In this document: positions 347 to 30,231 of the stretch, one piece after another
How positions within the stretch are numbered: the stretch's first letter is position 1
Layout: each line of letters opens with the position of its first letter
DNA from: an uncultured Ignavibacteriales bacterium
GTDB taxonomy: Bacteria; Zixibacteria; MSB-5A5; GN15; FEB-12
NCBI GenBank assembly: GCA_964396245.1
Contig: CAYNEO010000014.1
Span: 4,315 to 68,314, forward strand
Reading direction: 5' to 3'
DNA: 64,000 bases
The notes under the pieces: generated by a model
Seen by the model: the letters and a program-made list of their open reading frames with translations, nothing else
Told to the model about the DNA's origin: nothing
Databases searched by the model: none
Made by a program: the position numbers and the translations under genes

Positions 347-362
347 AGCATAAGCGATGCCA
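347..362 (-). promoter_or_regulatory. candidate sigma-54 (-24/-12) promoter for the lipoprotein gene
   Basis: Reverse strand reads TGGCAT-CGCTT-ATGCT. The GG and GC dinucleotides have the exact spacing of the consensus TGGCAC-N5-TTGCW. It lies about 75-90 nt upstream of ATG 272, in the intergenic region divergent from a sigma-54 activator gene. Confidence 0.55.
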
Positions 363-638: not shown

Positions 639-2225
639 ATGTCATCGGAATCAGTCGAACAGCCGGATCCAAAAAAGCTCGAGGCAGCTCTTAATGAGCT
701 CCGCGTGATCAATCGTGTTCTGGACAAAATCTGCCGGGCGCGTGAAACCAATCACATCATGTCAATCATCGTTGATGAGCTGGTGGCCTACACTCAGGCC
801 GACCAGGGTGTGATTCACCTGCTCACGCCCGGGACGTCCGATGACTTCGTCACCGTGGTCAGGCGCAGCCCGAACGGTCCGGAGGAGATTCCATTCACCC
901 TCAATAACCTCATTTGCGGCTGGGTGCTCAAAAATAAACAGACATTGAAGATCGATGACCTGACTTCAGATGACCGTTTCCCGGGACTCAGTTCAAAAGA
1001 TGGTCGCTTCAGCTCGATCCTGTGCTGTCCGCTGATTGTCAGGGGAGAGGTTATCGGCATTACAAGTCTAATACGGGGCAGCGTCAAAGGGCCGTTCCAT
1101 GAGGATCACGGCAGGTTAGCAGGCATTATTGCATCGCAGTCGGCGCAGATCCTGAGCAATGCGCGCCTGCTCGAAGAGCTCGCGCGCAAAACAGAATTGC
1201 TGGAATTCTCCCAGAAAAAACTCCACGATGAGAACATTCGGCTTCGCCAGGAAATCGGCGCCACGTACGCTTTCGAAAATATCGTGGGCAAATCCGAACC
1301 CATGAAACGCGTGCTGACACTGGCCTCCAAAGTCAGCGGCAATGATGCTCCCGTCCTGATCACCGGCCCGACCGGCACCGGCAAGGAACTTCTCGCCGGC
1401 GCGATCCATCAGCGCAGCAACCGTCGCGGCAAGCCGTATGTCATCAAGAATTGCGGCGTGAAGACCGAGTCGTTGCTCGAGTCGGAACTGTTCGGCCATG
1501 TGAAAGGATCGTTCACCGGGGCCGACCGCGACAAACCCGGCCTTTTCAGGGCCGCCGACGGCGGTACGGTATTTCTCGATGAAATCGGCGACGCCCCTCT
1601 CTCGACACAGGCTGCAATTCTTCGCGTGCTCGAAACCGGCGAATATCGTCCGGTCGGCGCCACGAAATCCGAGTTCGTCGATGTCCGGATTATCTCCGCC
1701 ACCAACCGCGATCTCAAAGAGTTGATCCAGAAGGGGCAATTTCGGCAGGACCTGTATTACCGCCTGAACACCTTCACCATAGACATCCCGCCGCTTTGCC
1801 ATCGCCGTGAAGATATTCCGATTCTGGTCCACCACATTCTCCGCAAGCTGAAAGTCAAACTGCAGATGGACAACCTCAGTATCTCTCCTCGAGCGCTGGA
1901 AGTACTGTGCAATTACTCCTGGCCCGGCAACGTCAGGCAACTGGAAAACGAGCTCGAGCGCGCCGCTATTGTCTGTGATACCGACGGTATCATAGAAATC
2001 TCCGATCTCTCTCCCGATGTGCGCGGGCTCGGAGTATCGGAACCCGAGGTGAGAGAGTACCGGGGCCCTCTCAAGGAGTTGATCGAGAAAGTCGAGCGGG
2101 ACACCATCGAAGCCTGCCTCGCCGAAACCCGGGGCAATATCCTCAAATCATCCCGATTACTCGGTCTGACCCGCAAGGGCCTCAAGGACAAAATCGCCCG
2201 CTATGGGATCGAAATCGAACGCTGA
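639..2225 (+). CDS. sigma-54-dependent transcriptional activator (GAF - AAA+ - Fis-type HTH)
   Basis: 528 aa. N-terminal GAF-like region. Walker A GPTGTGKE; ESELFGHVKGSFTGA (GAFTGA-type loop); Walker B GGTVFLDEIG. C-terminal HTH GNILKSSRLLGLTRKGLKDKI. Confidence 0.95.
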   Translation: MSSESVEQPDPKKLEAALNELRVINRVLDKICRARETNHIMSIIVDELVAYTQADQGVIHLLTPGTSDDFVTVVRRSPNGPEEIPFTLNNLICGWVLKNKQTLKIDDLTSDDRFPGLSSKDGRFSSILCCPLIVRGEVIGITSLIRGSVKGPFHEDHGRLAGIIASQSAQILSNARLLEELARKTELLEFSQKKLHDENIRLRQEIGATYAFENIVGKSEPMKRVLTLASKVSGNDAPVLITGPTGTGKELLAGAIHQRSNRRGKPYVIKNCGVKTESLLESELFGHVKGSFTGADRDKPGLFRAADGGTVFLDEIGDAPLSTQAAILRVLETGEYRPVGATKSEFVDVRIISATNRDLKELIQKGQFRQDLYYRLNTFTIDIPPLCHRREDIPILVHHILRKLKVKLQMDNLSISPRALEVLCNYSWPGNVRQLENELERAAIVCDTDGIIEISDLSPDVRGLGVSEPEVREYRGPLKELIEKVERDTIEACLAETRGNILKSSRLLGLTRKGLKDKIARYGIEIER

Positions 2226-9467: not shown

Positions 9468-12400
9468 CTATAACTGGAAATAGAAGGTGGCGCCTTTTTC
9501 CACTTCACCTTCCGCCCACACGCGTCCGCCGTGAAGGTCGATAATTCGCTGCACCAGCGGCAGACCGACACCCGTGCCGGGGAAATCGGTTACCGAGTGC
9601 AGCCGCTGGAACGGCAGGAACAGCTTCTCGGAGAACTTCATGTCAAATCCCGCACCGTCATCCCGGACAAAAAACGTCGTGCTCCCGTCGACCTGCGTTC
9701 GGCCGAACTCAATCCGGGCGGTCGGGTGTTTCGAGGTAAACTTCCACGAATTGCGGAAAAGATTCTCGATGACAAGGTTGAGGAGCAGCCGGTCGCCGTG
9801 TGCCGTCATCCCGTCTTCGATAACGAACGTGACGTCCCGCTCCGGCTCCGAGTCCTCAATCGTTTCGGCTATATCATGCGCCATCGCGGTAAGGTCAATA
9901 TCCTCGCGATTGACCGCCGCCCGTGACACACGGGACAGTTGCAGCAGGTCGTCAATGAGCTGTGCCATCCTTTCACTGGCCGCGCGAACTCGATTGAGAT
10001 AATCCCGGCCGTCTTCATCGAGCCTGTCGCCGTAATCCTCGAGCAGCGCCAGGCTGAAACCGTTGATGCTGCGGAGGGGCGCGCGCAGGTCATGAGACAC
10101 TGAATAGCTGAAAGCCTCCAGCTCCTTGTTGGTTTCCGCCAGCCGTGCGGCATGCCGCGCAAGCATCTCGTTCATGGCTTTCATGTCTTCTTCGGCATGC
10201 TTGCGATCCGTGATATCAATGGCGGCCGATGTCACGCCGATGACCTCCCCGTCCTGATCCCGCAGCGGTTCGGCGGTCAGGTCAAAATAGTGCATGCCGT
10301 CGGCAAGCCTCAGCGGTACTTCTTCTCTGATTCCCGCACCGGTGTCCAGCACCCGTTGTTTGGCTGTGGACCACTCCAATGCACCCTCGGCGGGATTCAC
10401 TTCCTCCATACGCCTTCCAAGCAATTTCCCCAGCTGGAGGTCTCTGGGTGCGTTGCTCACCCATGTATACCGAAGGTCGCAGTCAACCATGGCCACCGAG
10501 ATTTTGGAATTAGTGATGGCCACGCGGAACCTCTCCTCGGTTTCACGCAGCGCCCGTTCAGCCTGCTTCTGGGCGGTAATATTGCGGGCGGTAGTCGCAG
10601 CCGCCACAACCTGACCCTCTTTATTTTTGATAGGCGAGATGGTAAGGGATACCAGAATACGTTCGCCGTTCTTGCGGACACGGATGGTCTCGAATTGTTC
10701 GATTCTCTCCCCGCGCTCCAGTTTCGCGACAATTTCGTCCTCCTCATCCTCCTTGTCAGGGGGTATCATGACCGTTATCGGCTGACCGATAATCTCTCCT
10801 GCCGAATAGCCGTACATTCGTTCGGCGCCCGGATTCCACGTGCTGATTGTGCCGTCGATGGCCTTGGTGATCATGGCATCGGACGACGACTCGACAATCG
10901 CCGCCAGACGGGACTTCGAATCAAAAGCGACTTTCTGGTCGGTAGTATCGTAGATCATGCCGACCATACGTATCACCCGGCCGTCGTGGTCACGTACGAC
11001 GTCCCCAATTTCCTCTACCCAGCGAACCGTACCGTCGGGCCACACCACCCGATGCTCTTCCTTATAGTGATGTCCTTCGCTAACGCTGGCCTCCACCGCT
11101 TTTGTAATGCGCGGTTGGTCTTCAGGGTGCACGGTGTCGAAAAAGGTCTGGGCAGCGGTTTCTCGTATGTCTGGCGGCACTCCCAGTATGAGCGGCACTT
11201 CCTCGGACCAGATCAACCGGTCGTTGATAATATCCCAGTCCCAGGCGCCGATATTCGCCAGCCTCTGCGCGAGCTTAAGCCGCTCTTCACCCTTTTGAAC
11301 TTCTTCCTGTGCCCTCTTTCGTTCCGTGATGTCGACATTGACGGCTACCGCCCCGACTATATTCTCCTCGGCATCGCGAATAGGCAGTGCGTAGTTGAGG
11401 ATCGTCTTCCGCTTTCCGTCGAACGTCTCAATTTCGACTTCTTCCGCCTCGCTTTCTTCGCCTCTCGCTATAGCGCGCGCAAGTCCCCACTCATGAGCCT
11501 CGACTTGACGGCCGGTGTCGGGCCAGAAGGCCTTGTAAGTGCCATAGGACTCCGGCGAGTCCACCATCGGCGTCTCTCCTCCCCAGATCGCGCTCGCAGC
11601 GGGATTGGCCTGAATCAGCTGCCCTCGGGCGTCTGCGATCAATACCGCTACCGGCAGAGCATTAAGGACCGCCTCGAGTCTCCGGCGTTCAAGGGCTACC
11701 TCCGCATGAATTTCTTCGAGTATCTTGTCGGCGCGGACTTCTTCGGTAACATCGAGCAGTGAAAACACGAGACCCTGCACTGTACCGTCGGCATCTTTTA
11801 CGGGTACCAGTGTCCAATCCCAATAGGTCGTGCCGCGTTCCGGTTGATCTATGTATTCGAACGGTTTCTTATGAAATTCCGCTTGCTCGCCGCTGTCACG
11901 AACCTTCGTGAAAATGGCTTCATTTGCCGGATCGGGGAAGAGTTCAAAATGGTTCCTGCCGATCAGTTCCTCCGCCGGCCGCCCGCACCCCTCGACATAC
12001 GCCGAATTGACCCCGACAAAGTTGAAATCCCGGTCAAGGTAGGCGAGTTGCGTGCGCGTGTTCTCCATGATGATATTCAGGATGTCACGCTCGCGCTGGA
12101 CGACGTCGGCCAGCTCCGCAGCCGCCTGTCGTTCCTCGACTAACTGGGCAAGCAGTTGCTCCCGTTCTTCTTCCGCTTGCTTGCGCTCGGTAATATCGAC
12201 ATTGGCGCCGATGTACGCTGTAATTCTTCCGGCATCATCTCTCACTGCCGTGGCGTATCCGGATATCCAGGTCACTTTACCGTCAGGAGTTATAAACCGA
12301 TATTCCTTGCCCCACTTGCCCTCCGATGCCACCATCTGATTCCATGCGCTGGAGACTTCCTCGCGATCATCGGGATGAAGCGCCGCAGACCACCCATCGC

Positions 12401-13856
12401 CCAAAGCTTGTTCGACCGTCATGCCCGCCATGGCACACCAGCGCTGATTGGCATACGTACACTGTCCCTTCTCATTGGTGAGATAGATGCCGACCGGGGC
12501 GACCTCTGCCAGCGTCCGGAACTGCGCTTCGCTGTTCTTGAGCGCGATTTCGTTGATTTTGCGTTCGGTTATGTCACGCTGATTCGAAATCAGGCATATC
12601 ATCCGTCCGTAGGCGTCATTGACGGCGGCCACGGAAGCTTCGGTGATGAAGACCGTGCCGTCTTTCGTGATATTATGCACCTCACCGTGCCAGGTACCAT
12701 GCTCTGCCAGGGCCGTCATGATTTCAGTCCGCGTTTTCTGCGCATCAGGTGCGTTGAGGGCTGCAACCTCCTTGCCGATCAGTTCGCCGCGACCATACCC
12801 GAACATCCGTTCAAAGGCCGGATTCGCATAGATGATCGAGCCCTCGGCGGAAACAATCGTCGTCCCGTCGTTACTGGTGTCGACGGCCTTTTGAAGAATC
12901 TCGCGCTGTTCTTCCGCCCGTTTCCGCTCGGTGACATCGTGGGTGATCCCGAGTATCTGCCGTATCCCGCCATGACCATCGAGAACCGGTACGTAGGACG
13001 CGATAAATGTGTACGTGCCTGATTTCAGGGGCATGGTGCACTCGCCGCTTTGCGGCTGCCGGGTTTCGACCGACTTGATCAACAGTGGGAGAAAAGACCC
13101 GGTCACGTCAGGCGGCAGGATCTCCTCATCCCTCCGGCCGACAATGTCATTCGGTGAGAGCCCCATCAATGCGGCGCCGTAGGAGTTGATATACTGTATT
13201 CGGCGGTCGGCATCATAAAGCACAAACGTCGCCGGGTAATGATCCACCGCCAATCTAAACTGTTGCTGACTTTGCTGAAGGCCCTCGAGGGCCTCCGCCA
13301 GCTCCGCCGTGCGCTCATGCACCCGCATCTCCAGTTCATCGTTCACCTTCTTCAGGGCGGCCTCGGCGCGCTTTTTTCCCTCGATATCGCTACTGGTACC
13401 GAACCAGTTGGTGATATTGCCTGAAGCGTCCAGCTGCGGTTCGGCGCGCGCCACGAACCACCGGTAGCTCCCGTCCGCCATCCGGTAACGCACCTCAACT
13501 TCGTAGTCTTTTCCCTCGCTCAGGGATTCCTGCCATCTTTTCAGACAGCGATCGACATCATCCGGGTGCAACACTTCCGCCCACGCTGTCCCGAGCGACT
13601 GTTCCCTGGTGCGACCGGTATTCTTGTACCAGACGTCGTTGAGGAACGTGATGTTCCCTTCCGGATCACCGATCCAGAGATAGGCAGGGACGGTGTTGGC
13701 AAGTCGAAGAAACAACTTGCCGGCATCGCACAGGTTCTCTTCGGACTCCTGCGTCAGCAGCGTACCTGTGTCTGTCACCCGTCGTTTCGGGATTGGCGCC
13801 GGCCGGTCCTTGCGGGAAGATCTGTTTCCAGTTTTCTTGCTCTTGCCACCGGACAT
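9468..13856 (-). CDS. multi-PAS sensor histidine kinase
   Basis: 1462 aa. About nine PAS/PAC modules, each ending in a D(I/V)TERK-like motif. HisKA H-box FSYSVSHDLRAPL. HATPase_c GTGVGLPLVQRIIDLHGG. RBS AGAGGAG. Confidence 0.95.
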   Translation of the reverse strand: MSGGKSKKTGNRSSRKDRPAPIPKRRVTDTGTLLTQESEENLCDAGKLFLRLANTVPAYLWIGDPEGNITFLNDVWYKNTGRTREQSLGTAWAEVLHPDDVDRCLKRWQESLSEGKDYEVEVRYRMADGSYRWFVARAEPQLDASGNITNWFGTSSDIEGKKRAEAALKKVNDELEMRVHERTAELAEALEGLQQSQQQFRLAVDHYPATFVLYDADRRIQYINSYGAALMGLSPNDIVGRRDEEILPPDVTGSFLPLLIKSVETRQPQSGECTMPLKSGTYTFIASYVPVLDGHGGIRQILGITHDVTERKRAEEQREILQKAVDTSNDGTTIVSAEGSIIYANPAFERMFGYGRGELIGKEVAALNAPDAQKTRTEIMTALAEHGTWHGEVHNITKDGTVFITEASVAAVNDAYGRMICLISNQRDITERKINEIALKNSEAQFRTLAEVAPVGIYLTNEKGQCTYANQRWCAMAGMTVEQALGDGWSAALHPDDREEVSSAWNQMVASEGKWGKEYRFITPDGKVTWISGYATAVRDDAGRITAYIGANVDITERKQAEEEREQLLAQLVEERQAAAELADVVQRERDILNIIMENTRTQLAYLDRDFNFVGVNSAYVEGCGRPAEELIGRNHFELFPDPANEAIFTKVRDSGEQAEFHKKPFEYIDQPERGTTYWDWTLVPVKDADGTVQGLVFSLLDVTEEVRADKILEEIHAEVALERRRLEAVLNALPVAVLIADARGQLIQANPAASAIWGGETPMVDSPESYGTYKAFWPDTGRQVEAHEWGLARAIARGEESEAEEVEIETFDGKRKTILNYALPIRDAEENIVGAVAVNVDITERKRAQEEVQKGEERLKLAQRLANIGAWDWDIINDRLIWSEEVPLILGVPPDIRETAAQTFFDTVHPEDQPRITKAVEASVSEGHHYKEEHRVVWPDGTVRWVEEIGDVVRDHDGRVIRMVGMIYDTTDQKVAFDSKSRLAAIVESSSDAMITKAIDGTISTWNPGAERMYGYSAGEIIGQPITVMIPPDKEDEEDEIVAKLERGERIEQFETIRVRKNGERILVSLTISPIKNKEGQVVAAATTARNITAQKQAERALRETEERFRVAITNSKISVAMVDCDLRYTWVSNAPRDLQLGKLLGRRMEEVNPAEGALEWSTAKQRVLDTGAGIREEVPLRLADGMHYFDLTAEPLRDQDGEVIGVTSAAIDITDRKHAEEDMKAMNEMLARHAARLAETNKELEAFSYSVSHDLRAPLRSINGFSLALLEDYGDRLDEDGRDYLNRVRAASERMAQLIDDLLQLSRVSRAAVNREDIDLTAMAHDIAETIEDSEPERDVTFVIEDGMTAHGDRLLLNLVIENLFRNSWKFTSKHPTARIEFGRTQVDGSTTFFVRDDGAGFDMKFSEKLFLPFQRLHSVTDFPGTGVGLPLVQRIIDLHGGRVWAEGEVEKGATFYFQL

Positions 13857-15253: not shown

Positions 15254-15949
15254 ATGCCCCAATGGCTGACAATCATCGCCATCATTTCTTTGATCGCCGG
15301 CGCGCTTTCGGCGATAGTCATTATTATCGATCTGCTCAACGGCAACAAACAGCACATGTGGATTATGAACCTGGTCTGGCCGATTACCGGACTCTGGGCG
15401 GGTCCGCCCGCAGTCTGGGCCTACTACCGCTACGGACGCGCGGCGAGGCACAAAGTGGTGATGGCTGCGAAGAAGTCGGGGGAGAAGCCGCCCTCCATGA
15501 AACAGCCCTTCGCGGTGGCGGTCGCCAAAGGCGCGTTACACTGCGGCTCCGGCTGTACGCTCGGAGATATCATCGCCGAATGGTTTGCGGTCGCCGTGCC
15601 GTTGGTTTTGTTCGGCCGCCTCATATTCGGCTCGTGGGTCTATGACTATGCGTTTGCTTACGTGCTCGGCATTATCTTTCAGTATTTCACCATCAAGCCG
15701 ATGAGAAACCTGACCGTCGGCAAAGGGTTCGTCGCCGCTGTCAAAGCCGATACACTCTCGCTCACCTCGTGGCAGGTCGGCATGTACGGCTGGATGGCGA
15801 TTGCCACCTTTGCGATATTCGGAGTCGAACTGCACAAAACCGACCCGGTCTTCTGGTTTATGATGCAGATCGCGATGTATTTCGGCTTTCTGACCGCCTA
15901 TCCCACCAACTGGTGGCTCTTGCGCCGGGGTATAAAGGAACGGATGTAG
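15254..15949 (+). CDS. DUF4396-family membrane protein
   Basis: 231 aa polytopic membrane protein. The HCGSGCTLGD motif and overall layout match DUF4396 from memory. Confidence 0.85.
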   Translation: MPQWLTIIAIISLIAGALSAIVIIIDLLNGNKQHMWIMNLVWPITGLWAGPPAVWAYYRYGRAARHKVVMAAKKSGEKPPSMKQPFAVAVAKGALHCGSGCTLGDIIAEWFAVAVPLVLFGRLIFGSWVYDYAFAYVLGIIFQYFTIKPMRNLTVGKGFVAAVKADTLSLTSWQVGMYGWMAIATFAIFGVELHKTDPVFWFMMQIAMYFGFLTAYPTNWWLLRRGIKERM

Positions 15950-16022
15950 CTTCCGTATCGCATCAGGAGAAGCCTGACTCATCCCCCCGCTGCAAAGTCA
16001 CATTGGTGGCAATATTCTGTCC

Positions 16023-16637
16023 TCAAAGAATGGCCACGCGCTTGATATCAGCCACCGATGTCTTGGTCGTGCGGGCGTTGTGCTGGCCGACCAGGTGCCA
16101 GCTCTTCTGGAACCGCAGCGACGGACGGTCGATATCGATGTCCTCCTGCTTCGGACCGCGCGACTTGGTGGTAACGCGGACTTTCCTGTCGCAGACGATA
16201 GCGCCGTTGATCAGTACCGATGATACCAGGCTGCTGAAATCGCCCGACTCAGGAATTGTCTCCATCTGGTGCTTGAATGACCGGATGATGTCCTCCACGG
16301 GAAAGGGCTGGGCGACGATGATCTTCTGGACCAGGGCGTCGATGTCCTGTTTGTAGTCGCCGTTGACCCTGGCGCCCAGGACCTTCAATGCAATGACCAG
16401 GATAAGGGCTTCATTGATCTGCAGACTGTCGACTGATGCGGCGTGCTCGGTGTTCAACCGGTAAGCCCTGAGGTTCTTATCGTAGTATACGGGAATATTG
16501 GCTTCGGAGAGCGTGTTCAGGTAACGGTAGATAGTTCGTTCAGGGATGTCGCACGTTTGCTTGATCGTCTCAAGTGTGACATATCGCCGATTATTCAACA
16601 GGCTGATCAAAAGCAGGATTCGGTCTATGGCACTCAT
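16023..16637 (-). CDS. HTH (HTH_11/YafY-type) + WYL-like domain transcriptional regulator
   Basis: 204 aa. N-terminal wHTH RYVTLETIKQTCDIPERTIYRYLNTL. C-terminal KVRVTTKSRGPKQEDIDIDRPSLRFQKSWHLVGQH...SVADIKRVAIL matches the WYL-domain pattern (WYL replaced by WHL). It lacks the usual C-terminal extension. Confidence 0.85.
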   Translation of the reverse strand: MSAIDRILLLISLLNNRRYVTLETIKQTCDIPERTIYRYLNTLSEANIPVYYDKNLRAYRLNTEHAASVDSLQINEALILVIALKVLGARVNGDYKQDIDALVQKIIVAQPFPVEDIIRSFKHQMETIPESGDFSSLVSSVLINGAIVCDRKVRVTTKSRGPKQEDIDIDRPSLRFQKSWHLVGQHNARTTKTSVADIKRVAIL

Positions 16638-16649
16638 AATAGTGATTCA

Positions 16650-16671
16650 GGAGGGGGAGTGACCCCCCTCC
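16650..16671 (-). promoter_or_regulatory. 8-bp G/C hairpin between the small ORF and the WYL regulator
   Basis: GGAGGGGG-(6 nt)-CCCCCTCC: a perfect stem. On the mRNA strand the 5' arm and the preceding GGAGGAGGA are the only SD-like sequences ahead of ATG 16637. They are paired with, or adjacent to, the CCCCCTCC arm. Confidence 0.5.
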
Positions 16672-16687
16672 ATCCTCCTCCTTTAGG

Positions 16688-16921
16688 TTAGATACTTAAG
16701 GTTGTGAGAGCGAGCATCTGAAAAAGAGTACCCGCATCGTAAGTGCTGCTGCCCGCGTCGACGGTGGTCATGGTCGTGTCCTGTGGCACGCCGGAAGGCG
16801 GGATAATCGGATATCCATCGGCATAACCTTGTGACGGGATGCCTATCATGAAGGCGGCGCCCAGCAGGGCGGTAAGCGCTACCGCCGTAATCAGTCTCGC
16901 GAACCGTGATCTTGTTTCCAT
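16688..16921 (-). CDS. small secreted hypothetical protein (77 aa)
   Basis: RBS GGAG 7 nt upstream of the ATG. METRSRFARLITAVALTALLGAAFMIG reads as a signal peptide. Mature part is P/T/G/D-rich with a hydrophobic C-terminus (TLFQMLALTTLSI). GC3-biased codons. No family recognised. Confidence 0.55.
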   Translation of the reverse strand: METRSRFARLITAVALTALLGAAFMIGIPSQGYADGYPIIPPSGVPQDTTMTTVDAGSSTYDAGTLFQMLALTTLSI

Positions 16922-17188
16922 TTTGCGCTCCTATGCGTCTGAAGTTTCCTTGGCAACGACGCGAGGAGCCATTACAAGCCATATGCCGTCGCTTTTACGG
17001 CACGATCACGGTGGCGTAACTTGTTTAGATTGAGTGTGTTAGCGAGGTCGGTGCAAGGCAGACCGGCGGGAAAACCGGCCGGAAAATCTGCCACCTCTTG
17101 GGATCAAAAAATTAATCCCGTGTGACACAGTATGTTATGAAATGGAATGGTTGCCGATTATGTGGCGCGGCGGTAAATCTGGACCGGC

Positions 17189-20100
17189 TTATCGAGGTTT
17201 TGTGATGTTATGTTTTTTCATTTTTCTTCGAAGAGTCGTCAGCGGTAACCCCAGAAACCGCGCCGCACGCGACTGATTCCACCGGTGCTGAATCAGCGCC
17301 GAGTGAATTTCAGCCCTCTCCGCTTCCAGTGCGGCTTTCTTCGACGTCTCTGAACTGCTGACGACATCGCGCATCTCCGGCGGAAGCATTTCGCGCGTGA
17401 TCATCCGCCCGGCGCCGGTGATACAACACCGCTCCACGAAATTCCGGAGTTCCCGAACATTTCCCGGCCAATCATAGGCCAGCAAGGCCTGGATAACCTC
17501 GCCGGCAAACCGCGGCGCGGCTCTGCCGGCTGAGAATATGGCGACAAAATGCTGCAATAACGGGATGATATCCGACCGACGCTCTCTCAGCGGCGGAATC
17601 TCGATATCAAACGTGTTGATCCGGTAGTACAGATCCTCCCGGAACCTGCCTTCTTTGACCATCTCGCCGAGGTCCTTGTTGGTCGCATAGATAAACCGCA
17701 CATCCGAATACGTCGTACGATTACTCCCCACCTTCTGAAATTCCCTGGTTTCCAGGACCCGAAGCACCTTCGCCTGCGTTTCGGTCGACATATCGCCGAT
17801 TTCGTCAAGCAGCAGCGTGCCGCCGTCGGCGGCCGCCAGCTTTCCATCCCGACCCTCGACACCGGTCACCGCCCGGTTGGCCACTCCGAACAGCTCGCTC
17901 TCCACCAGGTTTTCCGGAATCGCGGAGCAGTTCACTTTGACCAACGGCATTTCCCGACGGTGAGAAAGGCGGTGAATCATGTCAGCCAGTATTTCCTTGC
18001 CGGTGCCGCTTTCTCCCCTGATGAGCACCGACGCATTCGATCGCGCTATTTCCGGAAGCATGCTCAACAGCGCCTTGGTAACTTCATCGTCGGCAACGAA
18101 CATTGCGCTGCCGCCCAGCTGGTTGATGTCCTCGATAAGCTGCTGATTGATCAGCGTCATGCTCTTGTACCGCTGAATGGTCGACAGCATGACCGACAGG
18201 AAATTCGCTATCGAGTTGATATACTTCACGTCCTGATCATCGAAAAGGGCCGGTATCGTGTGGTGATCGAGATACAGTGCGCCCATCACCGAGCCGTCCG
18301 CCGCAATCGGCAGGCAGATGACCGACAGGATATTATGGTGAATGATGCTCTTGAACCGATTGGTGCGCTTGTCGTTCAGGGCATTTTCGATCACCAGCGG
18401 TTCGAGTTCGCTGCTGACCCGGAGTGGAATAGAGGAACTGATACTCTCGATATCATCGAGACTGTCCTCGTCGCAATTCTCGTAAGCTACCACCTGCAGC
18501 TTACCGGACTGCTCCTTTTTGAGCAGCAGGGCGCCCCGCTCCGCTCCGGTGGCCTCGACGGCAAACCGCACCATCGCCTTCAGCGAATCGGCGTAGCGAT
18601 CGATATTCTGGAAGATTTCCGAGATAACGTGAATGGAATGAACCAGTTGCGACTCACCTTCGGCGCTCGCCAGGGTAAGCTTGAGTTCGTCGTTGATCTT
18701 CGCCTGAAAGCTGTCGTTCGACAGCGCTTCGGCCAGCGTCCGTGCGCGCAGGAAAAACTTCCTCGCGAACTTGATTCTCGACCCGAGCAAATACAGCTGT
18801 CCGATTCGATAGGCGGACAGCATGCCGAGAAATTTCTGCTCGCCCTCCACGAGAATGGAATGAATTTCCTTGAACGTACGAATCTGCGCGTTCGGCGAAT
18901 TATCCCCCGAGCGTACCAGATTGACCAGATTGAGAAGCGACCGTAAAACAGGCGAATTCGTTTTTGCATAAGGGTCGAGGAAAGGCCCGATCAGCTTGAT
19001 CGCCCCTTTCGACGCAGTCTCGTCGGACGATAGCAGGACATAAAGCGCCGTCAGCACGGCATACATGCGGCAGTCGTATTTCAAAAGCTCTTCGATGCGC
19101 CTGAGGAGAGGAGATGCGTCCACCGGACCGCTACTGTAATAGACCTCTTGTATGGCCCTGATTGTCGCGATTTCAGCCAGCGAGCTCTTGTCGCCGATTT
19201 CTTCGAAGACCGCCGCGGCCGAGTTCAGCGCCGACGTGCACTCATCCATTTTCCCCCGGTACAGTGCGATTTCTGCGAGATTGTGGTATGCTTTACCCTG
19301 GTACGCCGATGAGTGCGCCGAGCGGAGCAGTTGCAGCGCCTGAACGCAGGACGAACGAGCCTGTTCGAGGTTGCCCGAGTTAGCTTTCAGAAAGGCATCA
19401 TAGCAGTAGTGGGAGATAAGGGCGCTTCGGTCGACATCGACTGATTTCAGGTTGAATACGCGCTGGAGCCAGTACTCGGCTTTCCGATATTCGCCTTCCC
19501 TCATGTGGGCGGCGCTGAGCGTGTAGAACACGGCCGGCAGGCGGAGAGCGGCCAAAGGCGAAACCGCGTTCTCCTCGCTCATCTTGGCATATTCAATCGC
19601 TTTCCTGAACTCCGTTCGCTCGTGATAGATCATAGCCAGTAAATTGGTGATCAGCATTACGCTGAGCCGTGAGTCGGTCGTGCGGGCGCCTTTGAGACCG
19701 TTCTGGAGGTGTCTGACGGCAGCGGGCTTGTCTCCCTGCCAGAGGCTGAGAATCGCCCGCGTATAAGTCGCCATCGTCTCAACCTCGTGGTCTCCAATTT
19801 CTATCGCCTCCTCCAGGGTTTCTTCAATTGTCGCCGCCGCCTCTTCTAATCGGCCGCGAAGACCGGCGTCGAAAGCCTGCGATCTCTTCATCTGAAGGTA
19901 ATACCTGGGGGTCTCCTTGAGCCTCTCATCGGCCAACGCACGCTCGACCAGTGTTGACCCTCGGTCATAGTCAGCCATTGAGTTATATCGAAGGACCAGC
20001 TCATACAGGAGTTCCGGATCAAACCGGTTCTGGCGCTCCACAATCTCCCGGACCTTCTCGTAGTATTCGGCCGCCCGCGAAACGCGGTTAAGGACCGTAG

Positions 20101-21379
20101 CCAGATAAGCGAGCTTGCGGTAAATCTGTTCCCGTTTCTCCGACCCGTCTTCTTCAGGATGATCTTCAAGCGCTGTGAGGGCGGTCTTGAGTCGCAAGTA
20201 CGCTTTTTGGAAATGCTCGCTTTTCTCGTCATCGCCGGCCTCGGCCACCAGCCGGTCTATATCGACCCGTTCCGGTGAACTCACCAGCCGCGAAGGGCCC
20301 GGGCCCGACGCGATAATCCGCTCCAGCCGGCTATACGTTTTCTGAAGCGTGTCATCGTCGGCCGAAAAGTGCCAGTAATCGCCGAGACGGCTGATTTCCG
20401 CCTTCTGAAAAAGGAATTTGAACGCCTTGAGTGTTTCCAGCGGCCGATTGGAATAGGCTGCATTGAAATCGATTATCAGTTCTTCGCGAAGTCCCAGCAC
20501 ACGATTTCGCTGGAAAAACGATTTCAGGCTGCTGCCGGCGCCCGCAAGTTTCCGGCGCTCGCGACAAAAACCGGTGAGCAGGCCCATGGCCAGGACGGAT
20601 TTCTGAGCCGACTCATATGCCGGTTCATCGATAAGCCCGTATTGTCTCAGTCCTTCGACAAGCGATCGCGGACGCCTGACCGGATCGTCCTGTGTGAGTT
20701 GAGCGGTAAATGCCCGTAATTTCTCGATATCTACTGCCGCCGATTCATCGGCCGACCTTGCCCGGGACTCGAGATGCTCGATTAGTTTGGCAAGCGATAC
20801 ACCGAGGGAATAGTTGTCGGACTGGGTGGTGATCCTGTCATTGGCCCGGATTTCAGGCGCAATATGCTCCGGTGTACCCAGGATTTTTGCCTTCGGACGG
20901 GAGTCGGTCTTGCACAAAAAATCGAGATCGACAAGGATAACCGACCGGCTACCGTTGACCGAATTCACCAGGAAATTTGACAGTTTCAAGTCGCAGTGGA
21001 CCAGATCCAACAGGTGCAAGTAGTCTATTACGATACATATCTGGAGCAATATCGAACTGAAATCGGCCCGAAAGTCTTCCGGTGTCAGCTCCCGCCAGAC
21101 CTCGGTGTCGAGATAAGGATACTCGACAAACAGATTGCCGGCCTCGAGACGCTTCCGCCGCGCCCACAATACCTTGTAGCTGTAGGCGCCCTTCTGACAG
21201 GCGAAAGAATCGCTCAGAATCTCCTTCAAGGCGCTGACATTAAGCATGTTAGTCGGCGAAATTGTCTTGATAAAACACTTCCGGCCGCTTGCGATGCGGG
21301 TGGCCCACCACGACTGACACATGTCGTTTTCCGCCATGAGCCGGTCGAATCGATAGGCCTTTGATTTCGGCTGTATCAT
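17189..21379 (-). CDS. Ser/Thr protein kinase - TPR - GAF - sigma-54-type AAA+ - Fis HTH fusion regulator
   Basis: 1396 aa. Kinase motifs CFIKT, HCDLKLSN, DLDF, GTPEHIAPE. Long TPR-like helical middle, then a GAF-like region. AAA+ motifs GESGTGKE, ESELFG, GGTLLLDEIG. The GAFTGA loop position reads RAVTGV (17858-17875). C-terminal HTH NQSRAARFLGLPLTTLRRKMKK. Confidence 0.95.
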   Translation of the reverse strand: MIQPKSKAYRFDRLMAENDMCQSWWATRIASGRKCFIKTISPTNMLNVSALKEILSDSFACQKGAYSYKVLWARRKRLEAGNLFVEYPYLDTEVWRELTPEDFRADFSSILLQICIVIDYLHLLDLVHCDLKLSNFLVNSVNGSRSVILVDLDFLCKTDSRPKAKILGTPEHIAPEIRANDRITTQSDNYSLGVSLAKLIEHLESRARSADESAAVDIEKLRAFTAQLTQDDPVRRPRSLVEGLRQYGLIDEPAYESAQKSVLAMGLLTGFCRERRKLAGAGSSLKSFFQRNRVLGLREELIIDFNAAYSNRPLETLKAFKFLFQKAEISRLGDYWHFSADDDTLQKTYSRLERIIASGPGPSRLVSSPERVDIDRLVAEAGDDEKSEHFQKAYLRLKTALTALEDHPEEDGSEKREQIYRKLAYLATVLNRVSRAAEYYEKVREIVERQNRFDPELLYELVLRYNSMADYDRGSTLVERALADERLKETPRYYLQMKRSQAFDAGLRGRLEEAAATIEETLEEAIEIGDHEVETMATYTRAILSLWQGDKPAAVRHLQNGLKGARTTDSRLSVMLITNLLAMIYHERTEFRKAIEYAKMSEENAVSPLAALRLPAVFYTLSAAHMREGEYRKAEYWLQRVFNLKSVDVDRSALISHYCYDAFLKANSGNLEQARSSCVQALQLLRSAHSSAYQGKAYHNLAEIALYRGKMDECTSALNSAAAVFEEIGDKSSLAEIATIRAIQEVYYSSGPVDASPLLRRIEELLKYDCRMYAVLTALYVLLSSDETASKGAIKLIGPFLDPYAKTNSPVLRSLLNLVNLVRSGDNSPNAQIRTFKEIHSILVEGEQKFLGMLSAYRIGQLYLLGSRIKFARKFFLRARTLAEALSNDSFQAKINDELKLTLASAEGESQLVHSIHVISEIFQNIDRYADSLKAMVRFAVEATGAERGALLLKKEQSGKLQVVAYENCDEDSLDDIESISSSIPLRVSSELEPLVIENALNDKRTNRFKSIIHHNILSVICLPIAADGSVMGALYLDHHTIPALFDDQDVKYINSIANFLSVMLSTIQRYKSMTLINQQLIEDINQLGGSAMFVADDEVTKALLSMLPEIARSNASVLIRGESGTGKEILADMIHRLSHRREMPLVKVNCSAIPENLVESELFGVANRAVTGVEGRDGKLAAADGGTLLLDEIGDMSTETQAKVLRVLETREFQKVGSNRTTYSDVRFIYATNKDLGEMVKEGRFREDLYYRINTFDIEIPPLRERRSDIIPLLQHFVAIFSAGRAAPRFAGEVIQALLAYDWPGNVRELRNFVERCCITGAGRMITREMLPPEMRDVVSSSETSKKAALEAERAEIHSALIQHRWNQSRAARFLGLPLTTLRRKMKKHNITKPR

Positions 21380-21479
21380 GACAAAGTAACCCCGTCCATT
21401 TTCACGAGCCCCGTCTGTCGGGATGAATTACGGGAAATCTGACAGCGAGCCCGTACCAGCAATATAGAGAATCTGCCAT

Positions 21480-21503
21480 TTTTTTCAAATTTCTTTGAAA
21501 AAA
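21480..21503. promoter_or_regulatory. AT-rich perfect palindrome upstream of the kinase-regulator gene
   Basis: TTTTTTCAAA-tttc-TTTGAAAAAA, about 100 bp upstream of ATG 21379 in otherwise GC-rich DNA. It is followed by the imperfect inverted repeat CTACTGCCA-gaaag-TGACAGTAG (21511-21533). Confidence 0.4.
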
Positions 21504-21609
21504 TCAATTTCTACTGCCAGAAAGTGACAGTAGCCTTCCGTACATTAGGCCATAGGATGTCGACAAACCGTCACAGGCTCGACATTGCAAAGGGGGCCAG
21601 ACGTTAAGT

Positions 21610-21684
21610 GGGCAGGGCAAGTAAATCCGTCTGAGGGGGGTAGGAAACTACCGATTGGAGCTTGCCCCTGCCCCTTTTATTTAT
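21610..21684 (+). ncRNA. orphan terminator-like structured element (candidate sRNA 3' end or leader/attenuator)
   Basis: A 12-bp stem, GGGCAGGGCAAG (21610-21621) with CTTGCCCCTGCCC (21661-21673, one bulged C). It encloses an inner GGTAG-GAAA-CTACC hairpin (GNRA loop, 21639-21652). CTTTTATTTAT follows. No upstream +strand gene. Confidence 0.4.
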
Positions 21685-21895
21685 CCTTAAGTATCGCTCT
21701 TTCTCCATTTTTGTCAAGAAATAGATGCCGATGCTTGCCTGTCCGCCCTCCGGGCTTGCCTCACGGCCAATTACGCCGCCGGATCAGTCGCACGTCAGAC
21801 GGTCCATCTTCGCCGGGGCACTTGACAGCCGCGCAGCATGTCGCCATTTTATCTGTCACCATTAATAGGTGTTAACCATAGGCGAGGAGGTGTGT

Positions 21896-23509
21896 ATGCT
21901 AAGGTCCGTCGCTGTTATTCTTCTCTTGCTCGTGTTTCTCCTGCCGGTGGCGCCGGTTTTTGCGTCGCCCGGAGACACGGTAACGTCCATTCCCACCCCC
22001 CGGTGTTGCCCGCAGGGTTTGACGTTCGATGGCACCCACCTCTGGAATGCCGACCGTCGAACCGACATGATCTATCGCATCGACCCGGCCACCGGCTCGG
22101 TGGTGGATTCCATTCCGACCCCCGGCTACGCGCCGCTGGGACTGACCTGGGACGGTCAGCGGCTGTGGATTATCGATGCCGACGAAGAGCTGATCTATGC
22201 TGTCGACCCGCAAACCCGCATCGTGGAAAAGACGATTTATTGCCCGGTCAGCAGCCCCGGCGGACTGGCATGGGACGGGGAGTTCCTCTGGATATCCGAC
22301 GACGGCGGTAATACAATAGATAAAATCAGCCCCGAAGACGGCACTACGATCATTTCACTCCCGGCACCGTCGTCTCACCCCGGCGGTCTGACATGGGACG
22401 GTGAATACCTGTGGGTCGCCGACCGGGTGCAGGACATGATCTACATGATCACGCCGGATCGCGGCGACGTTATCATTTCGTTCGCCTCACCCGGTCCTCA
22501 TGCCTGGGGACTGGCCTGGGACGGCAAGAACATATGGAGTGCGGACTACCAGACCGACCGCATTTATAAGCTGGTCGTGGACGACGGGACGTTGTTCTCC
22601 CGCATGAACGAGAAGACCGAGCGTGTCGATTTCATCCACCAGGTACGAAATTTCGGCCCGGATACCATGACCGTCCTCGATGTCTATCTCGCGGTTCCCG
22701 AAAACCTGAACAGCCAGGAGATCCTCGGCGAGATCAAATACGACCCGCAGCCAAAAGAATTTCTGACCGACAAGTGGGGACAGAAAGTCGCCCATTACGA
22801 GTTCACCAATCTGGGCGCCACGGAATTCCGGACGGTCACCATGACAACCGATGTCAGGCTGTACCAGAACCGGTATTACATCTATCCGGACAAGGTCGGT
22901 TCACTGGCCGAGATTCCGAAGGAGATACGGGAGAAGTATCTTGTCAACGATACCAAGTTCGACATGGAAAACCCGATCATCCGGAAAGCGGTACAGGCGG
23001 CCGTCGGCGACGAAACCAACCCGTTCTGGATAGCCCGCAGGATATTCAACTATATCATCGAGCACATGGAATATGAACGCGTCGGTGGATGGAATGTGGC
23101 GCCGACCGTGCTGGCCCGCGGTAACGGCTCGTGCTCGGAGTACACCTTCGTTTATATCGCCATGTGCCGGGCGGCCGGGTTGCCGGCGAGATACGCCGGT
23201 TCGGTCGTGATTCGCGGCGATGACGCTTCATGGGACAACGTCTATCACCGGTGGGTCGAAGTGTACCTGCCCAACTTCGGATGGATTCCGGTCGATCCGT
23301 CGGGCGGTGACTCGGAGTGGCCGGGTCAGCAGGCAAACAGCTTCGGCTACCTCAACAACCGCTTCCTCATTACCACCATCGGTGGCGGCGGTTCCGAGTA
23401 TCTTGGATGGAGCTACAATTCCAATGAGGAATGGAAGTCGAAAGGCCGGTGTAAAATCGTCGTTGAAAACTTCGGCGAGTGGTCGCCTCTGAACATGGAA
23501 ACAGAGTAG
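21896..23509 (+). CDS. secreted beta-propeller-repeat protein with C-terminal transglutaminase-like core
   Basis: ORF 21869..23509 trimmed to ATG 21896 (GAGGAGG RBS; signal peptide MLRSVAVILLLLVFLLPVAPVFA). Five tandem ~48-aa repeats with G(L)TWDGxxLW. C-terminal Cys-His-Asp core context: GNGSCSEYTFVYIAMCRAAGLPARY, YHRWVEVYL, GWIPVDPS. Confidence 0.9.
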   Translation: MLRSVAVILLLLVFLLPVAPVFASPGDTVTSIPTPRCCPQGLTFDGTHLWNADRRTDMIYRIDPATGSVVDSIPTPGYAPLGLTWDGQRLWIIDADEELIYAVDPQTRIVEKTIYCPVSSPGGLAWDGEFLWISDDGGNTIDKISPEDGTTIISLPAPSSHPGGLTWDGEYLWVADRVQDMIYMITPDRGDVIISFASPGPHAWGLAWDGKNIWSADYQTDRIYKLVVDDGTLFSRMNEKTERVDFIHQVRNFGPDTMTVLDVYLAVPENLNSQEILGEIKYDPQPKEFLTDKWGQKVAHYEFTNLGATEFRTVTMTTDVRLYQNRYYIYPDKVGSLAEIPKEIREKYLVNDTKFDMENPIIRKAVQAAVGDETNPFWIARRIFNYIIEHMEYERVGGWNVAPTVLARGNGSCSEYTFVYIAMCRAAGLPARYAGSVVIRGDDASWDNVYHRWVEVYLPNFGWIPVDPSGGDSEWPGQQANSFGYLNNRFLITTIGGGGSEYLGWSYNSNEEWKSKGRCKIVVENFGEWSPLNMETE

Positions 23510-29157: not shown

Positions 29158-30162
29158 TTAACGGAATTGGGTGAAGTAAATAATAAGGGCGGCGAGAATC
29201 ACAAAGACGAAAAAGATGCCGAATAAATATGATTTGTGAGAGCCGGAGCCGGTAACATCCGGACTCCCGCTCTCCTCCTTTTCCGCGCCGGCCAGGCGCA
29301 GTTTCTCCACCCAGGTATCCTCAACCGCAAGGACTTGGGCCGATTCGGCCGGCAGGGTGGCGACCTTAATGTCAGGCAGGGGAGACTCTTTGACCTCCAG
29401 AATTTCCAGAGCAATCACCGTCACGTTGTCAGCCCCGCCGCGATCATTGGCCATCTGTACCAGATCCTCGGTCATCTTTTCGATATTATCACGCGAACGC
29501 CGCGCGACCTCATAGATCTCATCATCGTCGGCAAAACCGCATAAACCGTCCGAGCAAAGCAGGAATACATCTCCCGGGTTGACCTTGATAATCCGGTAGT
29601 CAACCTCGACATTTTCACGCACTCCCAGGGCCCGGGTGATAACATTCTTGCCCACGAACGAGCTTGCCTCTTCCCGCGAAATACCCTGCGCTTCCTGGAA
29701 TTCCTCGATCCACGAATGATCCCTCGTGAGCGGCACGAGCATCGTCTTGTCGAGCCGGTAGGCCCGGCTGTCGCCGACATGCGCGATCGTGGCGATATCC
29801 GCCTCGAACACGGTGGCAACCACGGTCGTTCCCATGCCGCTCTTGGCCGAGTCCGACGCGGCCATCGTGTAAATCGCACGGTTGGCCAGCCGTATCGCTT
29901 TCAACAACACCTCGCTGCTCGGCGGCAGAATCCGTCCGATATCCAGTTCGGGCGCTTCGATCAATTCTTTCTGGAAGACATTGAATGAATTGCGAAGTGT
30001 CTCGCCGGCCAGCATCGATGCTACCTCACCGGCCTGGTGACCTCCCATCCCATCACAAACGGCGTAAACGTGGTTGTCCGGGTCGAGATGCAAATAGTCT
30101 TCGTTGCCCGGTCTGACAAGACCTTTGTCCGTCTTACCGGCGACCTTTATTCTGAGCGGCAC
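29158..30162 (-). CDS. PP2C-family Ser/Thr protein phosphatase with C-terminal membrane anchor
   Basis: Motifs GKTDKGLVRPGNEDY, AVCDGMGGH, LLCSDGL, GGADNVTVI. C-terminal TM helix LFGIFFVFVILAALIIYF. The track ORF extends to 30231. However, a strong promoter occupies 30203-30231, and GTG 30162 has a GGAAGGG RBS and gives a canonical N-terminus (VPLRIKVAGKTDKG). Confidence 0.88.
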   Translation of the reverse strand: MPLRIKVAGKTDKGLVRPGNEDYLHLDPDNHVYAVCDGMGGHQAGEVASMLAGETLRNSFNVFQKELIEAPELDIGRILPPSSEVLLKAIRLANRAIYTMAASDSAKSGMGTTVVATVFEADIATIAHVGDSRAYRLDKTMLVPLTRDHSWIEEFQEAQGISREEASSFVGKNVITRALGVRENVEVDYRIIKVNPGDVFLLCSDGLCGFADDDEIYEVARRSRDNIEKMTEDLVQMANDRGGADNVTVIALEILEVKESPLPDIKVATLPAESAQVLAVEDTWVEKLRLAGAEKEESGSPDVTGSGSHKSYLFGIFFVFVILAALIIYFTQFR

Positions 30163-30202
30163 AAGCCCTTCCTGGTTGGAGTTAAACGCCCAAGGTATAA
30201 CG

Positions 30203-30231
30203 ATTATATCCGATGTACCCCTGTTTCGCAA
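30203..30231 (-). promoter_or_regulatory. sigma-70-type promoter of the PP2C gene
   Basis: Reverse strand reads TTGCGA, 17-nt spacer, TATAAT (perfect -10), about 40 nt upstream of GTG 30162. Confidence 0.55.

Follow-up and report, generated by a model that had tools for sequence, protein, structure and literature searches.

A conserved sigma-54-type promoter adjoins the gene for a kinase-TPR-GAF-AAA+ regulator with a modified GAFTGA loop in Zixibacteria

The question raised by this locus is whether a regulator that lacks the usual GAFTGA sequence still acts through sigma-54. The regulator, a protein of 1396 amino acids (aa), is encoded on the minus strand of a 64,000-nucleotide stretch of contig CAYNEO010000014.1 (assembly GCA_964396245.1) from an uncultured bacterium placed by GTDB in the Zixibacteria; this whole stretch is called the window below. 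In a single polypeptide it joins a Hanks-type kinase fold to a TPR region, a GAF domain, a sigma-54-type AAA+ core, and a helix-turn-helix (HTH). Its gene is followed by a small open reading frame (ORF) for a predicted exported peptide and by a gene for a short HTH-WYL regulator. The original prediction for this DNA proposed that the protein may act independently of sigma-54. That proposal is not supported: a sigma-54-type promoter with boxes upstream of it was found at a fixed distance from the regulator gene in nearly every related locus. The best explanation, to which we give a probability of about 0.6, is a sigma-54 activator that switches on the neighbouring exported-peptide/WYL operon. 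It had been said beforehand that a sigma-54 promoter under its control would make the protein an ordinary activator, and the conserved GGCA-N6-TTG element beside the gene is essentially such a promoter. The cassette is still not that of an ordinary activator, because it has the kinase input and an L1 loop without Phe.

The three genes of the cassette are the following:

16023–16637, minus strand: gene for the 204-aa HTH-WYL regulator (ORF list, AlphaFold2, Foldseek, PADLOC)
16688–16921, minus strand: 77-aa small ORF (ORF list)
17189–21379, minus strand: gene for the 1396-aa regulator, with kinase-like, TPR, GAF, sigma-54 AAA+, and HTH_8 parts (ORF list, Pfam, NCBIfam)

They are co-directional, with gaps of 267 bp between the large gene and the 77-aa ORF and 50 bp between that ORF and the 204-aa gene. 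These coordinates, sizes, and gaps were as first reported, and the motifs quoted for the large protein were all found in their places, including RAVTGV at 17858–17875. An exact look-up of the window's own protein returned no matching record.

Results

Conservation of the three-gene cassette

Neighbourhoods were gathered from the large protein and, independently, from the 204-aa protein. The large protein has approximately 60 full-length homologs with 32–46% identity, most of them labelled Zixibacteria. The order of the three genes was kept in approximately 24 independent loci, again mostly from Zixibacteria, with flanking genes that were unrelated between loci. The linkage of the large gene to an exported-peptide ORF and an HTH-WYL gene, noticed in the window, is therefore borne out, and homologues of the three genes do co-occur elsewhere. 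The conserved layout consists of the large gene, a spacer of about 250–285 bp, an ORF of 70–99 aa, a gap of about 10–80 bp, and an HTH-WYL gene for 200–211 aa. Complete Zixibacteria genomes carrying the cassette are CP070756.1, CP070674.1, LS998015.1, and OY760907.1. One metagenome-assembled genome (JBATNE01) contains two divergent copies of the whole cassette (loci L009 and L012), whereas the other complete genomes contain one. The cassette is best explained as a self-contained regulatory unit, vertically conserved in Zixibacteria and their relatives.

An exhaustive search with the kinase-like 340 residues gave 124 cluster representatives (50% identity) at E ≤ 1e-30. Because nearly all of these were 1370–1420 aa long or were contig fragments, the kinase clade is essentially confined to the architecture of about 1390 aa. 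No paper on the architecture or the cassette was found in the literature searched, in keeping with the initial impression that the combination is not a described system; literature searches on fusions of kinases to enhancer-binding proteins and on Zixibacteria sigma-54 likewise gave nothing specific to it.

The small genes of the cassette are systematically under-annotated. In locus L036 (6099–6773) the gene caller placed an antisense ORF over the region, and neither the small ORF nor the WYL gene was called. In locus L035 (8236–8760) the boxes and the promoter are present, the small ORF seems to be frameshifted, and there is no WYL gene.

The sigma-54-type promoter

The promoter lies in the spacer between the large gene and the small ORF:

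16973–16988, minus strand: sigma-54-type promoter CGGCATATGGCTTGTA, that is, CGGCAT and TTGTA separated by ATGGC, with the −24 GG at 16986–16987 and TTGT at −12 (conserved GGCA-N6-TTG)

The original prediction had found no correctly spaced −24/−12 motif in the regions on either side of the large gene. This was correct for the upstream region (21380–21895), in which we found no sigma-54-like element, but not for the spacer (16922–17188), in which CGGCATATGGCTTGTA reads GG-N10-GT. The element was presumably missed because a strict GG-N10-GC search overlooks one with TTGT. The proven sigma-54 promoter of Escherichia coli pspA reads TGGCACGCAAATTGTA and has the same TTGT at −12; TTGT at this position is thus compatible with sigma-54.

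Strict matches to GGCA-N6-TTG were present at the equivalent position in 21 of 23 loci, metagenomic loci included, and lay 50–73 nt upstream of the small ORF. When 18 loci were anchored on their common GG, the pattern G-G-(C)-A-N6-T-T-G emerged, with invariant G, G, A, and G positions. Shuffled controls contained the motif in a mean of 0.21 of 13 loci, with a maximum of 3. The distance from the stop codon of the large gene to the GG was 195–215 nt in all 17 loci measured, and 195–203 nt in 16 of them, a spacing that is fixed despite the 32–46% identity of the large proteins. The base following TTG was T in 10 loci, A in 7, C in 4, and G in 1, and a TTA at about −31 is conserved in the spacer as well. 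A window-wide scan for TGGCAC-N5-TTGCW was uninformative, giving 19 matches against 22 expected.

A short GC-rich inverted repeat (arms TGCCGT and ACGGCA around AAAAGCG; 16989–17012, minus strand) is situated at the −24 element, and loci L008, L009, L011, and L014 have equivalent repeats; these either overlap the element or directly precede it on the upstream side. The repeat could terminate transcription of the large gene or be a further site for protein binding.

The AAA+ core and its L1 loop

The C-terminal part of the large protein contains the following:

17210–17326, minus strand: Fis-type HTH_8, residues 1352–1390 (Pfam PF02954, E 2.3e-11)
17339–18094, minus strand: sigma-54-interaction AAA+ core and lid, residues 1096–1347 (Pfam PF00158, PF25601)
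17858–17875, minus strand: L1 loop hexad RAVTGV, the GAFTGA equivalent; family consensus xVATGV (family alignment)
18185–18583, minus strand: GAF domain, residues 933–1065 (Pfam GAF_2, E 2.6e-10, and GAF)

The GAF domain (first described as GAF-like), the AAA+ core, and the Fis-type HTH, all noted at the outset, each matched a Pfam model. Sigma54_activat (PF00158) matched residues 1096–1259 with E 6e-60 and 202 bits against a cut-off of 20.2, and AAA_lid_14 (PF25601) matched residues 1265–1347 with E 1.2e-21. Walker A (GESGTGKE), Walker B (GGTLLLDEIG), the Arg fingers, and sensor II are intact, and the ATPase residues K1128, D1192, E1193, R1253, and R1309 are invariant in 56 sequences. The best NCBIfam match was a NifA-type GAF plus AAA+ model over residues 914–1341, which was sub-threshold; all NCBIfam scores for the protein were far under the equivalog cut-offs.

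The L1 loop does not contain GAFTGA. Among approximately 56 family members the hexads were NVATGV (11), GVATGV (7), GAATGV (5), xVATDV (8), and similar others, with the Thr invariant and the Gly mostly retained. In about 52 of the 56, A or V stands where GAFTGA has its F, and the four members with an aromatic residue (GAFTDA, NAFTGV, SAFTGV, and NAYTGV) look like intermediates. Up to the hexad the length of the loop is unchanged; behind it one residue is missing. The hexad had been described as degenerate; it does depart from the consensus, but it is a conserved variant that retains Thr-Gly and nearly the full length, not a decayed loop. In PspF, F85 and T86 of this motif contact sigma-54 region I (PMC3467059). 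Bacterial enhancer-binding proteins (bEBPs) that act with sigma-70 carry deletions in L1 (bioRxiv 10.1101/2023.06.06.543975). The aromatic residue did not co-vary with C at −12 across the loci: TTGC loci had the hexads NVATGV, GAATGV, and NAFTGV, and the NAYTGV locus had GTGA.

The second activator in the window (639–2225, plus strand) has GSFTGA, as was reported before. The presence of this canonical activator on the same contig argues that the genome has sigma-54. A candidate canonical sigma-54 promoter, TGGCATCGCTTATGCT (GG-N10-GC; 347–362, minus strand), lies 280 bp upstream of and divergent from its gene; taken alone, the match is not above chance.

The residues C969, D970, D976, D1003, C1022, D1038, H1039, and H1040 of the GAF domain are near-invariant in 56 homologs. 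This Cys/Asp/His cluster recalls the non-haem-iron or Zn site of the NorR and PexR GAF domains, by analogy with which the domain is a possible redox, NO, or metal sensor.

Boxes upstream of the promoter and at the large gene

Repeated sequences were found in the spacer and in front of the large gene:

17082–17094, minus strand: box B, GGTGGCAGATTTT, in which the box A type is inverted; some 105 nt upstream of −24
17118–17130, minus strand: central palindrome CTGTGTCACACGG, of the TGTG..CACA type (sequence)
17162–17177, minus strand: box A, tandem (T)TGCCRC-type repeats, here TTTACCGCCGCGCCAC; 12–30 nt after the stop codon in most loci
21461–21488, minus strand: sigma-70-like promoter of the large gene, TTGAAA-16-TATATT, with TGGCAGATT (21470–21478) in its spacer
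21511–21533, minus strand: 23-bp palindrome CTACTGTCAC-TTT-CTGGCAGTAG, a candidate operator, about 150 nt upstream of the ATG

Measured from the −24 element, the GCCAC boxes stand in inverted sets near −190 and −105. GTGGCA or TGCCAC was present in 10 of 15 intergenic regions, compared with at most 7 in shuffles, and palindromes similar to the central one occupy the equivalent place in loci L002, L009, L011, and L033. The sequence TGGCAGATT occurs three times in the window against 0.34 expected; one copy is in box B and one is in the promoter spacer of the large gene. In loci L010, L033, and L037 the boxes have a common changed form (AGCCACTCG), and the recognition helix of the activator has changed too (TTFRR instead of STLRR); the HTH of their WYL protein is unchanged. 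Because the boxes and the activator HTH change together and the WYL HTH does not, this one subclade gives weak evidence that the activator binds the boxes.

Locus L004 has a similar arrangement at the large gene, TTGAAA..GTGGCAGG..TATCTT, and CACTGNCA-N5-TGNCAGTG was found once in the window and at a similar position in 7 of 15 loci. The box and palindrome at 21461–21533 are probably an autoregulatory operator, and they suggest feedback by the activator, the WYL protein, or both. A search of Rfam over 15500–22500 gave no match.

The kinase-like and TPR regions

The N-terminal part of the large protein is made up of two regions:

18680–20362, minus strand: helical/TPR region, approximately residues 340–900 (Pfam)
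20630–21379, minus strand: Hanks-type protein-kinase fold, approximately residues 1–250 (AlphaFold2, Foldseek, phmmer, conservation)

The Pfam Pkinase model matched residues 106–240 with 59.5 bits (cut-off 31.7). The motifs are K38 in CFIKT, HCDLKLSN (128–135), DLD(F) (151–154), and GTPEHIAPE (168–176). An AlphaFold2 model of residues 1–340, built on 52 homologs, had a mean predicted local distance difference test score (pLDDT) of 93 and a predicted template modelling score of 0.92, with five N-lobe strands, an alphaC helix, and a C-lobe. Foldseek matched this model to CaMKII, DAPK1, and PAK4 (E about 1e-11, probability 1.0), and phmmer against PDB sequences gave STK17B at 1e-10 with the kinase motifs aligned. 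Structure prediction and Foldseek thus agree with the earlier assignment of a Hanks-type N-terminus in giving a full bilobal kinase fold, and the single polypeptide does combine this fold with TPR, GAF, sigma-54-type AAA+, and HTH regions.

In alignments to STK17B and PKA, HCDLKLSN corresponds to H(L/R)DLKPxN, V-D-L-D to V-D-F-G, and GTPEHIAPE to GTPEYLAPE. D130, K132, D151, and E176 do not vary among 56 family members, and N135 is kept in at least 90% of them. In an hhalign comparison with PKA only the C-lobe aligned. At least 90% of the members have K38, in CF(I/V)K; this Lys falls within a predicted strand (34–40), in an N-lobe that cannot be aligned to PKA by sequence. The GxGxxG loop is absent, as had been noted; the loop reads AENDMCQSW in the window, and SENxLxQSW is conserved in the family instead. 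Helix 48–62 has conserved S58 and Q62 in place of a conserved alphaC Glu. Because the catalytic motifs are intact, the Gly-rich loop and alphaC Glu are missing, and the N-lobe is unalignable, the modelled domain is a non-RD (HCD) kinase fold in which the catalytic C-lobe is intact and the nucleotide-binding N-lobe is atypical; it may or may not transfer phosphate.

The stretch first described as TPR-like gave weak Pfam matches to TPR_12, TPR_MalT, and TPR_2 between residues 553 and 744.

The exported-peptide ORF

The small ORF and its surroundings have the following features:

16928–16932, minus strand: ribosome-binding site AGGAG (GGAG-type site in nearly all loci)
16820–16921, minus strand: predicted Sec signal peptide, residues 1–34, with GYA followed by DG at residue 34 (sequence features)
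16691–16819, minus strand: predicted mature peptide, 43 aa, acidic, Pro-containing, with a hydrophobic C-tail (sequence features)
16650–16671, minus strand: GC-rich hairpin (9-bp stem) in the gap that separates the small ORF from the WYL gene (RNAfold)

The ribosome-binding site and signal peptide originally ascribed to the 77-aa ORF are supported by AGGAG and by the signal-peptide-like N-terminus. Signal-peptide features and a common architecture were found in all 23 syntenic small ORFs, at only 13–26% identity; it is this architecture that is conserved. In the 23 copies an N-region with a net charge of +1 to +3 is followed by a hydrophobic core and then by Pro/Ser. A signal-peptidase-type site at residues 30–35 has A or G at −1 and D or E at +1, and is usually A-x-A followed by D-G. 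The predicted mature peptides are 37–57 aa long, have a charge of −3 to −11, contain 7–27% Pro, and end in a 14-residue hydrophobic tail, often with one acidic residue. Searches of Pfam, NCBIfam, and PADLOC gave no family for the 77-aa ORF. Divergence is much faster in the peptide than in the two regulators; in locus L023 the WYL protein is 59% identical and the peptide is barely alignable.

The hairpin following the ORF had an RNAfold energy of −20.5 kcal/mol and a z score of −3.4. Of 19 loci, 12 had a hairpin with z < −2 in this spacer; the stem sequences were unrelated to one another, and a U-tract was usually absent. Such a hairpin could act in attenuation or processing, or could stabilise the mRNA, and in this way set the ratio of peptide to regulator.

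The 204-aa HTH-WYL protein

An AlphaFold2 model divides the 204-aa protein into three parts:

16455–16637, minus strand: winged HTH
16194–16418, minus strand: helical linker
16029–16181, minus strand: WYL-type beta-barrel

The model (pLDDT 83) has three helices and a beta-hairpin (residues 1–61), the linker, and a six-stranded barrel (residues 153–203). Its top Foldseek matches in the PDB were DriD, BrxR, PafBC, and CapW (E 4e-7 to 1e-3, probability 1.0), and the barrel alone matched the DriD C-domain (7tzv) with a root-mean-square deviation of 3.7. Pfam found HTH_11 only (E 1.6e-6). Because the Pfam WYL model gave no match to the protein, the WYL assignment is fold-level evidence. The PADLOC WYL model matched the HTH-linker part (E 4e-16), W180, the "W" of WYL, is invariant in the family, and homologs are named "YafY" by JGI. 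Matches of the family profile to Vps23/STP22 and, weakly, to TetR in PDB sequences were spurious or weak and were dropped in favour of the fold search. The HTH plus WYL-like call made from the sequence thus agrees with the model, which adds that the protein is a short variant. It lacks the WCX extension, because the chain stops at residue 204 directly after the barrel; the matched structures have 266–330 aa.

Discussion

A model for the cassette

According to the explanation that we favour, the 1396-aa protein would be a cytoplasmic one-component bEBP. Its ATPase ring is probably restrained by the GAF domain, as in NifA, NorR, and PexR, and the non-RD Hanks-type kinase or kinase-like domain and the TPR array probably supply further input. 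The Fis-type HTH probably binds the GCCAC boxes in the spacer of about 200 bp just downstream of its own gene, from which the activator would probably fire sigma-54 RNA polymerase at the GGCA-N6-TTG promoter. This promoter would drive expression of a Sec-exported, acidic, Pro-rich peptide with a hydrophobic C-terminal tail. The short HTH-WYL regulator would probably be made by read-through of the conserved hairpin, and would feed back. Because the Thr-Gly loop is selected, the ATPase residues are invariant, and a conserved sigma-54-type promoter is adjacent, we infer that coupling to sigma-54 continues through a modified L1 contact.

Several observations weigh against this model. The evidence for the promoter and its boxes is at the level of sequence, and C is found at −12 in only 4 of 22 loci; locus L037 has only TGGCAC-N5-GTG, and locus L032 has no clear element. 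In PspF each GAFTGA substitution tested, including those of F85, abolished open-complex formation (PMC3467059), so a loop without Phe might fail to engage sigma-54. A search for the RpoN box found none in the window or the related loci. That the promoter is served by the 1396-aa activator and not by another one is itself something that we infer. The kinase-like domain, having neither a Gly-rich loop nor a conserved alphaC Glu, may be catalytically silent, and the hairpin may terminate transcription ahead of the WYL gene.

Alternative explanations

The PspF results and the replacement of the Phe in about 52 of 56 members would also fit a protein that works with sigma-70-type promoters, like the NtrC proteins of Rhodobacter capsulatus and Caulobacter, NtrX, VspR, and TyrR, and the box inside the sigma-70-like promoter spacer of the large gene is a place where the protein may act in this way, probably as a repressor. 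We consider this unlikely as a general account, since the known sigma-70-acting bEBPs have L1 deletions (bioRxiv 10.1101/2023.06.06.543975), whereas here loop length and the invariant Thr-Gly are under selection across at least 124 clusters, the ATPase residues are invariant, and a sigma-54-type promoter is conserved at a fixed distance beside the gene. If the promoter is real and the Phe-less loop is incapable of remodelling sigma-54, it could instead be activated by another, canonical GAFTGA protein, one of which is encoded in the same genome; in that case the large protein would serve mainly as a kinase or scaffold, or would occupy the boxes as a repressor or anti-activator that depends on ATP. 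The inheritance of boxes, promoter, and activator gene as a unit with fixed spacing, the co-variation of the boxes with the HTH of the large protein in one subclade, and the absence of a second activator gene conserved nearby make this quite improbable.

The boxes and palindromes of the spacer might not be enhancer DNA but an RNA element, such as a small RNA, or a structured 3' untranslated region or terminator belonging to the large gene. Folding of the spacer is slightly more stable than that of shuffled sequences (mean z −1.6), box A pairs with box B in the minimum free energy structures of L010, L002, and L004, and the arms change concordantly in L010. However, pairing of box A with box B by at least 8 pairs was found in only 4 of 17 loci, with only 5 complementary nucleotides in the window; tandem direct repeats with a periodicity of about 9–11 bp are typical of protein sites; and TGGCAGATT recurs in the promoter of the large gene and Rfam gave no match, so that an RNA element is very unlikely. 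Two further possibilities concern the function of the circuit. The exported peptide or a fragment of it could be sensed by the TPR region of the activator and boost its own sigma-54-dependent synthesis, in the manner of RRNPP systems. Here a TPR regulator does adjoin a small, fast-diverging gene for a predicted Sec-exported peptide that it probably controls, the peptide diverges much faster than the regulators (as in L023), and one metagenome-assembled genome carries two cassettes. Such autoinduction seems distinctly unlikely, given that the cassette has no conserved gene for an importer, a processing protease, or a membrane sensor, that the activator has no predicted extracytoplasmic part, and that RRNPP systems are known only from Gram-positive bacteria and their phages. 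We think it very improbable that the cassette is a Psp-like module in which the activator induces a small membrane-active or periplasmic effector upon envelope or secretion perturbation. The activator gene lies beside a sigma-54 promoter with TTGT at −12, as in pspF-pspA, and the product has a hydrophobic or amphipathic C-tail, but the small protein resembles neither PspA/IM30 nor any other known family, and PspF has no sensory domains whereas the large protein has three.

Comparison with known systems

Under our preferred explanation, a sigma-54 activator of the adjacent operon, the closest relatives in design would be the group III bEBPs NifA, NorR, FhlA, and PexR. They have the same order of GAF, sigma-54 AAA+, and Fis-type HTH, and likewise a sigma-54 promoter with multiple upstream sites beside the regulator gene; the metal-binding GAF domains of NorR and PexR share conserved Cys/Asp/His with that of the large protein. 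The large protein differs in its additional 900 or so N-terminal residues, in having xVATGV in L1 instead of GAFTGA, and in its target, which is a small exported peptide and not an enzyme operon. The E. coli PspF gene also adjoins its sigma-54 target, whose promoter TGGCAC-N5-TTGTA has T and not C at −12; however, PspF has no regulatory domains and a canonical GAFTGA, and PspA belongs to the IM30 family, to which the small ORF is unrelated. The sigma-70-acting bEBPs (NtrC of R. capsulatus and Caulobacter, NtrX, and VspR of Vibrio cholerae) depart from GAFTGA as well, and the large protein may likewise act at a sigma-70-type promoter through the box in its own; in those proteins, however, L1 is deleted, whereas this family keeps the loop with its invariant Thr-Gly beside a sigma-54-type promoter.

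A cytoplasmic kinase fold followed by TPR is also found in Mycobacterium tuberculosis PknG and in the serine/threonine kinase (STK)-TPR proteins of myxobacteria and planctomycetes. Other kinase-AAA_16-GAF-sigma-54 fusions in the databases (P0062–P0073) have 1500–2170 aa, a different architecture, and canonical GAFTGA. In contrast to these STK-TPR and kinase-bEBP proteins, the kinase here lacks the Gly-rich loop and forms a distinct clade found almost only in the architecture of about 1390 aa. The 204-aa protein shares a winged HTH, a helical linker, and a WYL-type barrel with DriD, BrxR, CapW, and PafBC, but is shorter, lacks WCX, and is not beside a defence or DNA-damage module. The RRNPP regulators (Rap, NprR, PlcR, PrgX, and AimR) are also cytoplasmic TPR proteins encoded beside a gene for a small, secreted, fast-diverging peptide, but the output here is a sigma-54 AAA+ domain and the host is a diderm candidate phylum; the likeness is a resemblance without shown homology. 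The members of the cassette thus belong to the bEBP, Hanks kinase, and WYL regulator kinds, and each fails one hallmark of its kind: GAFTGA, the Gly-rich loop, and WCX, respectively.

GAFTGA has been treated as invariant and essential, and a family without its Phe beside a sigma-54-type promoter is a natural test of the requirements of this loop. A recent survey of sigma-54 regulons discards activators without an exact GAFTGA (PMC12316311); the present cassette would therefore have been excluded from it by design. It is possible, at clearly less than even odds, that the family, with more than 120 clusters at 50% identity, is a naturally occurring clade of enhancer-binding proteins in which a Phe-less xVATGV loop activates sigma-54 RNA polymerase, that it is gated by the kinase and TPR regions, and that the cassette is an autoinducing circuit whose activator controls, and may also sense, the exported peptide. 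In the large protein, kinase signalling of the eukaryotic type is fused directly to enhancer-dependent transcription, with a probable target that is known, and the protein offers a first regulatory handle on Zixibacteria, an uncultivated phylum. It also draws attention to small exported peptides that gene callers miss or mis-call, a family for which a dedicated regulator of 1400 aa is maintained.

Other genes near the cassette

The PP2C phosphatase proposed as a possible partner of the kinase is a real gene (29158–30231), but seven unrelated genes separate it from the cassette, at a distance of 7.8 kb, and six other loci had no PP2C gene near the cassette. Because it is not syntenic with the cassette elsewhere, we rejected the partnership. 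No defence system was found near the cassette, the PADLOC matches being generic (RtcR/PspF-like AAA+, kinase, and WYL).

A 1462-aa histidine kinase with about eight PAS domains is encoded 2 kb downstream of the cassette (9468–13856, minus strand), and is not kept near the cassette in other loci. The divergent upstream neighbour (21869–23509, plus strand) encodes a secreted protein with a beta-propeller (Vgb_lyase-like) and a transglutaminase core; a homolog is present in L002 (1–1111), 7 kb upstream of the cassette, and is absent from the other loci. A very large ORF of 1561 aa is located at 31469–36154 (minus strand).

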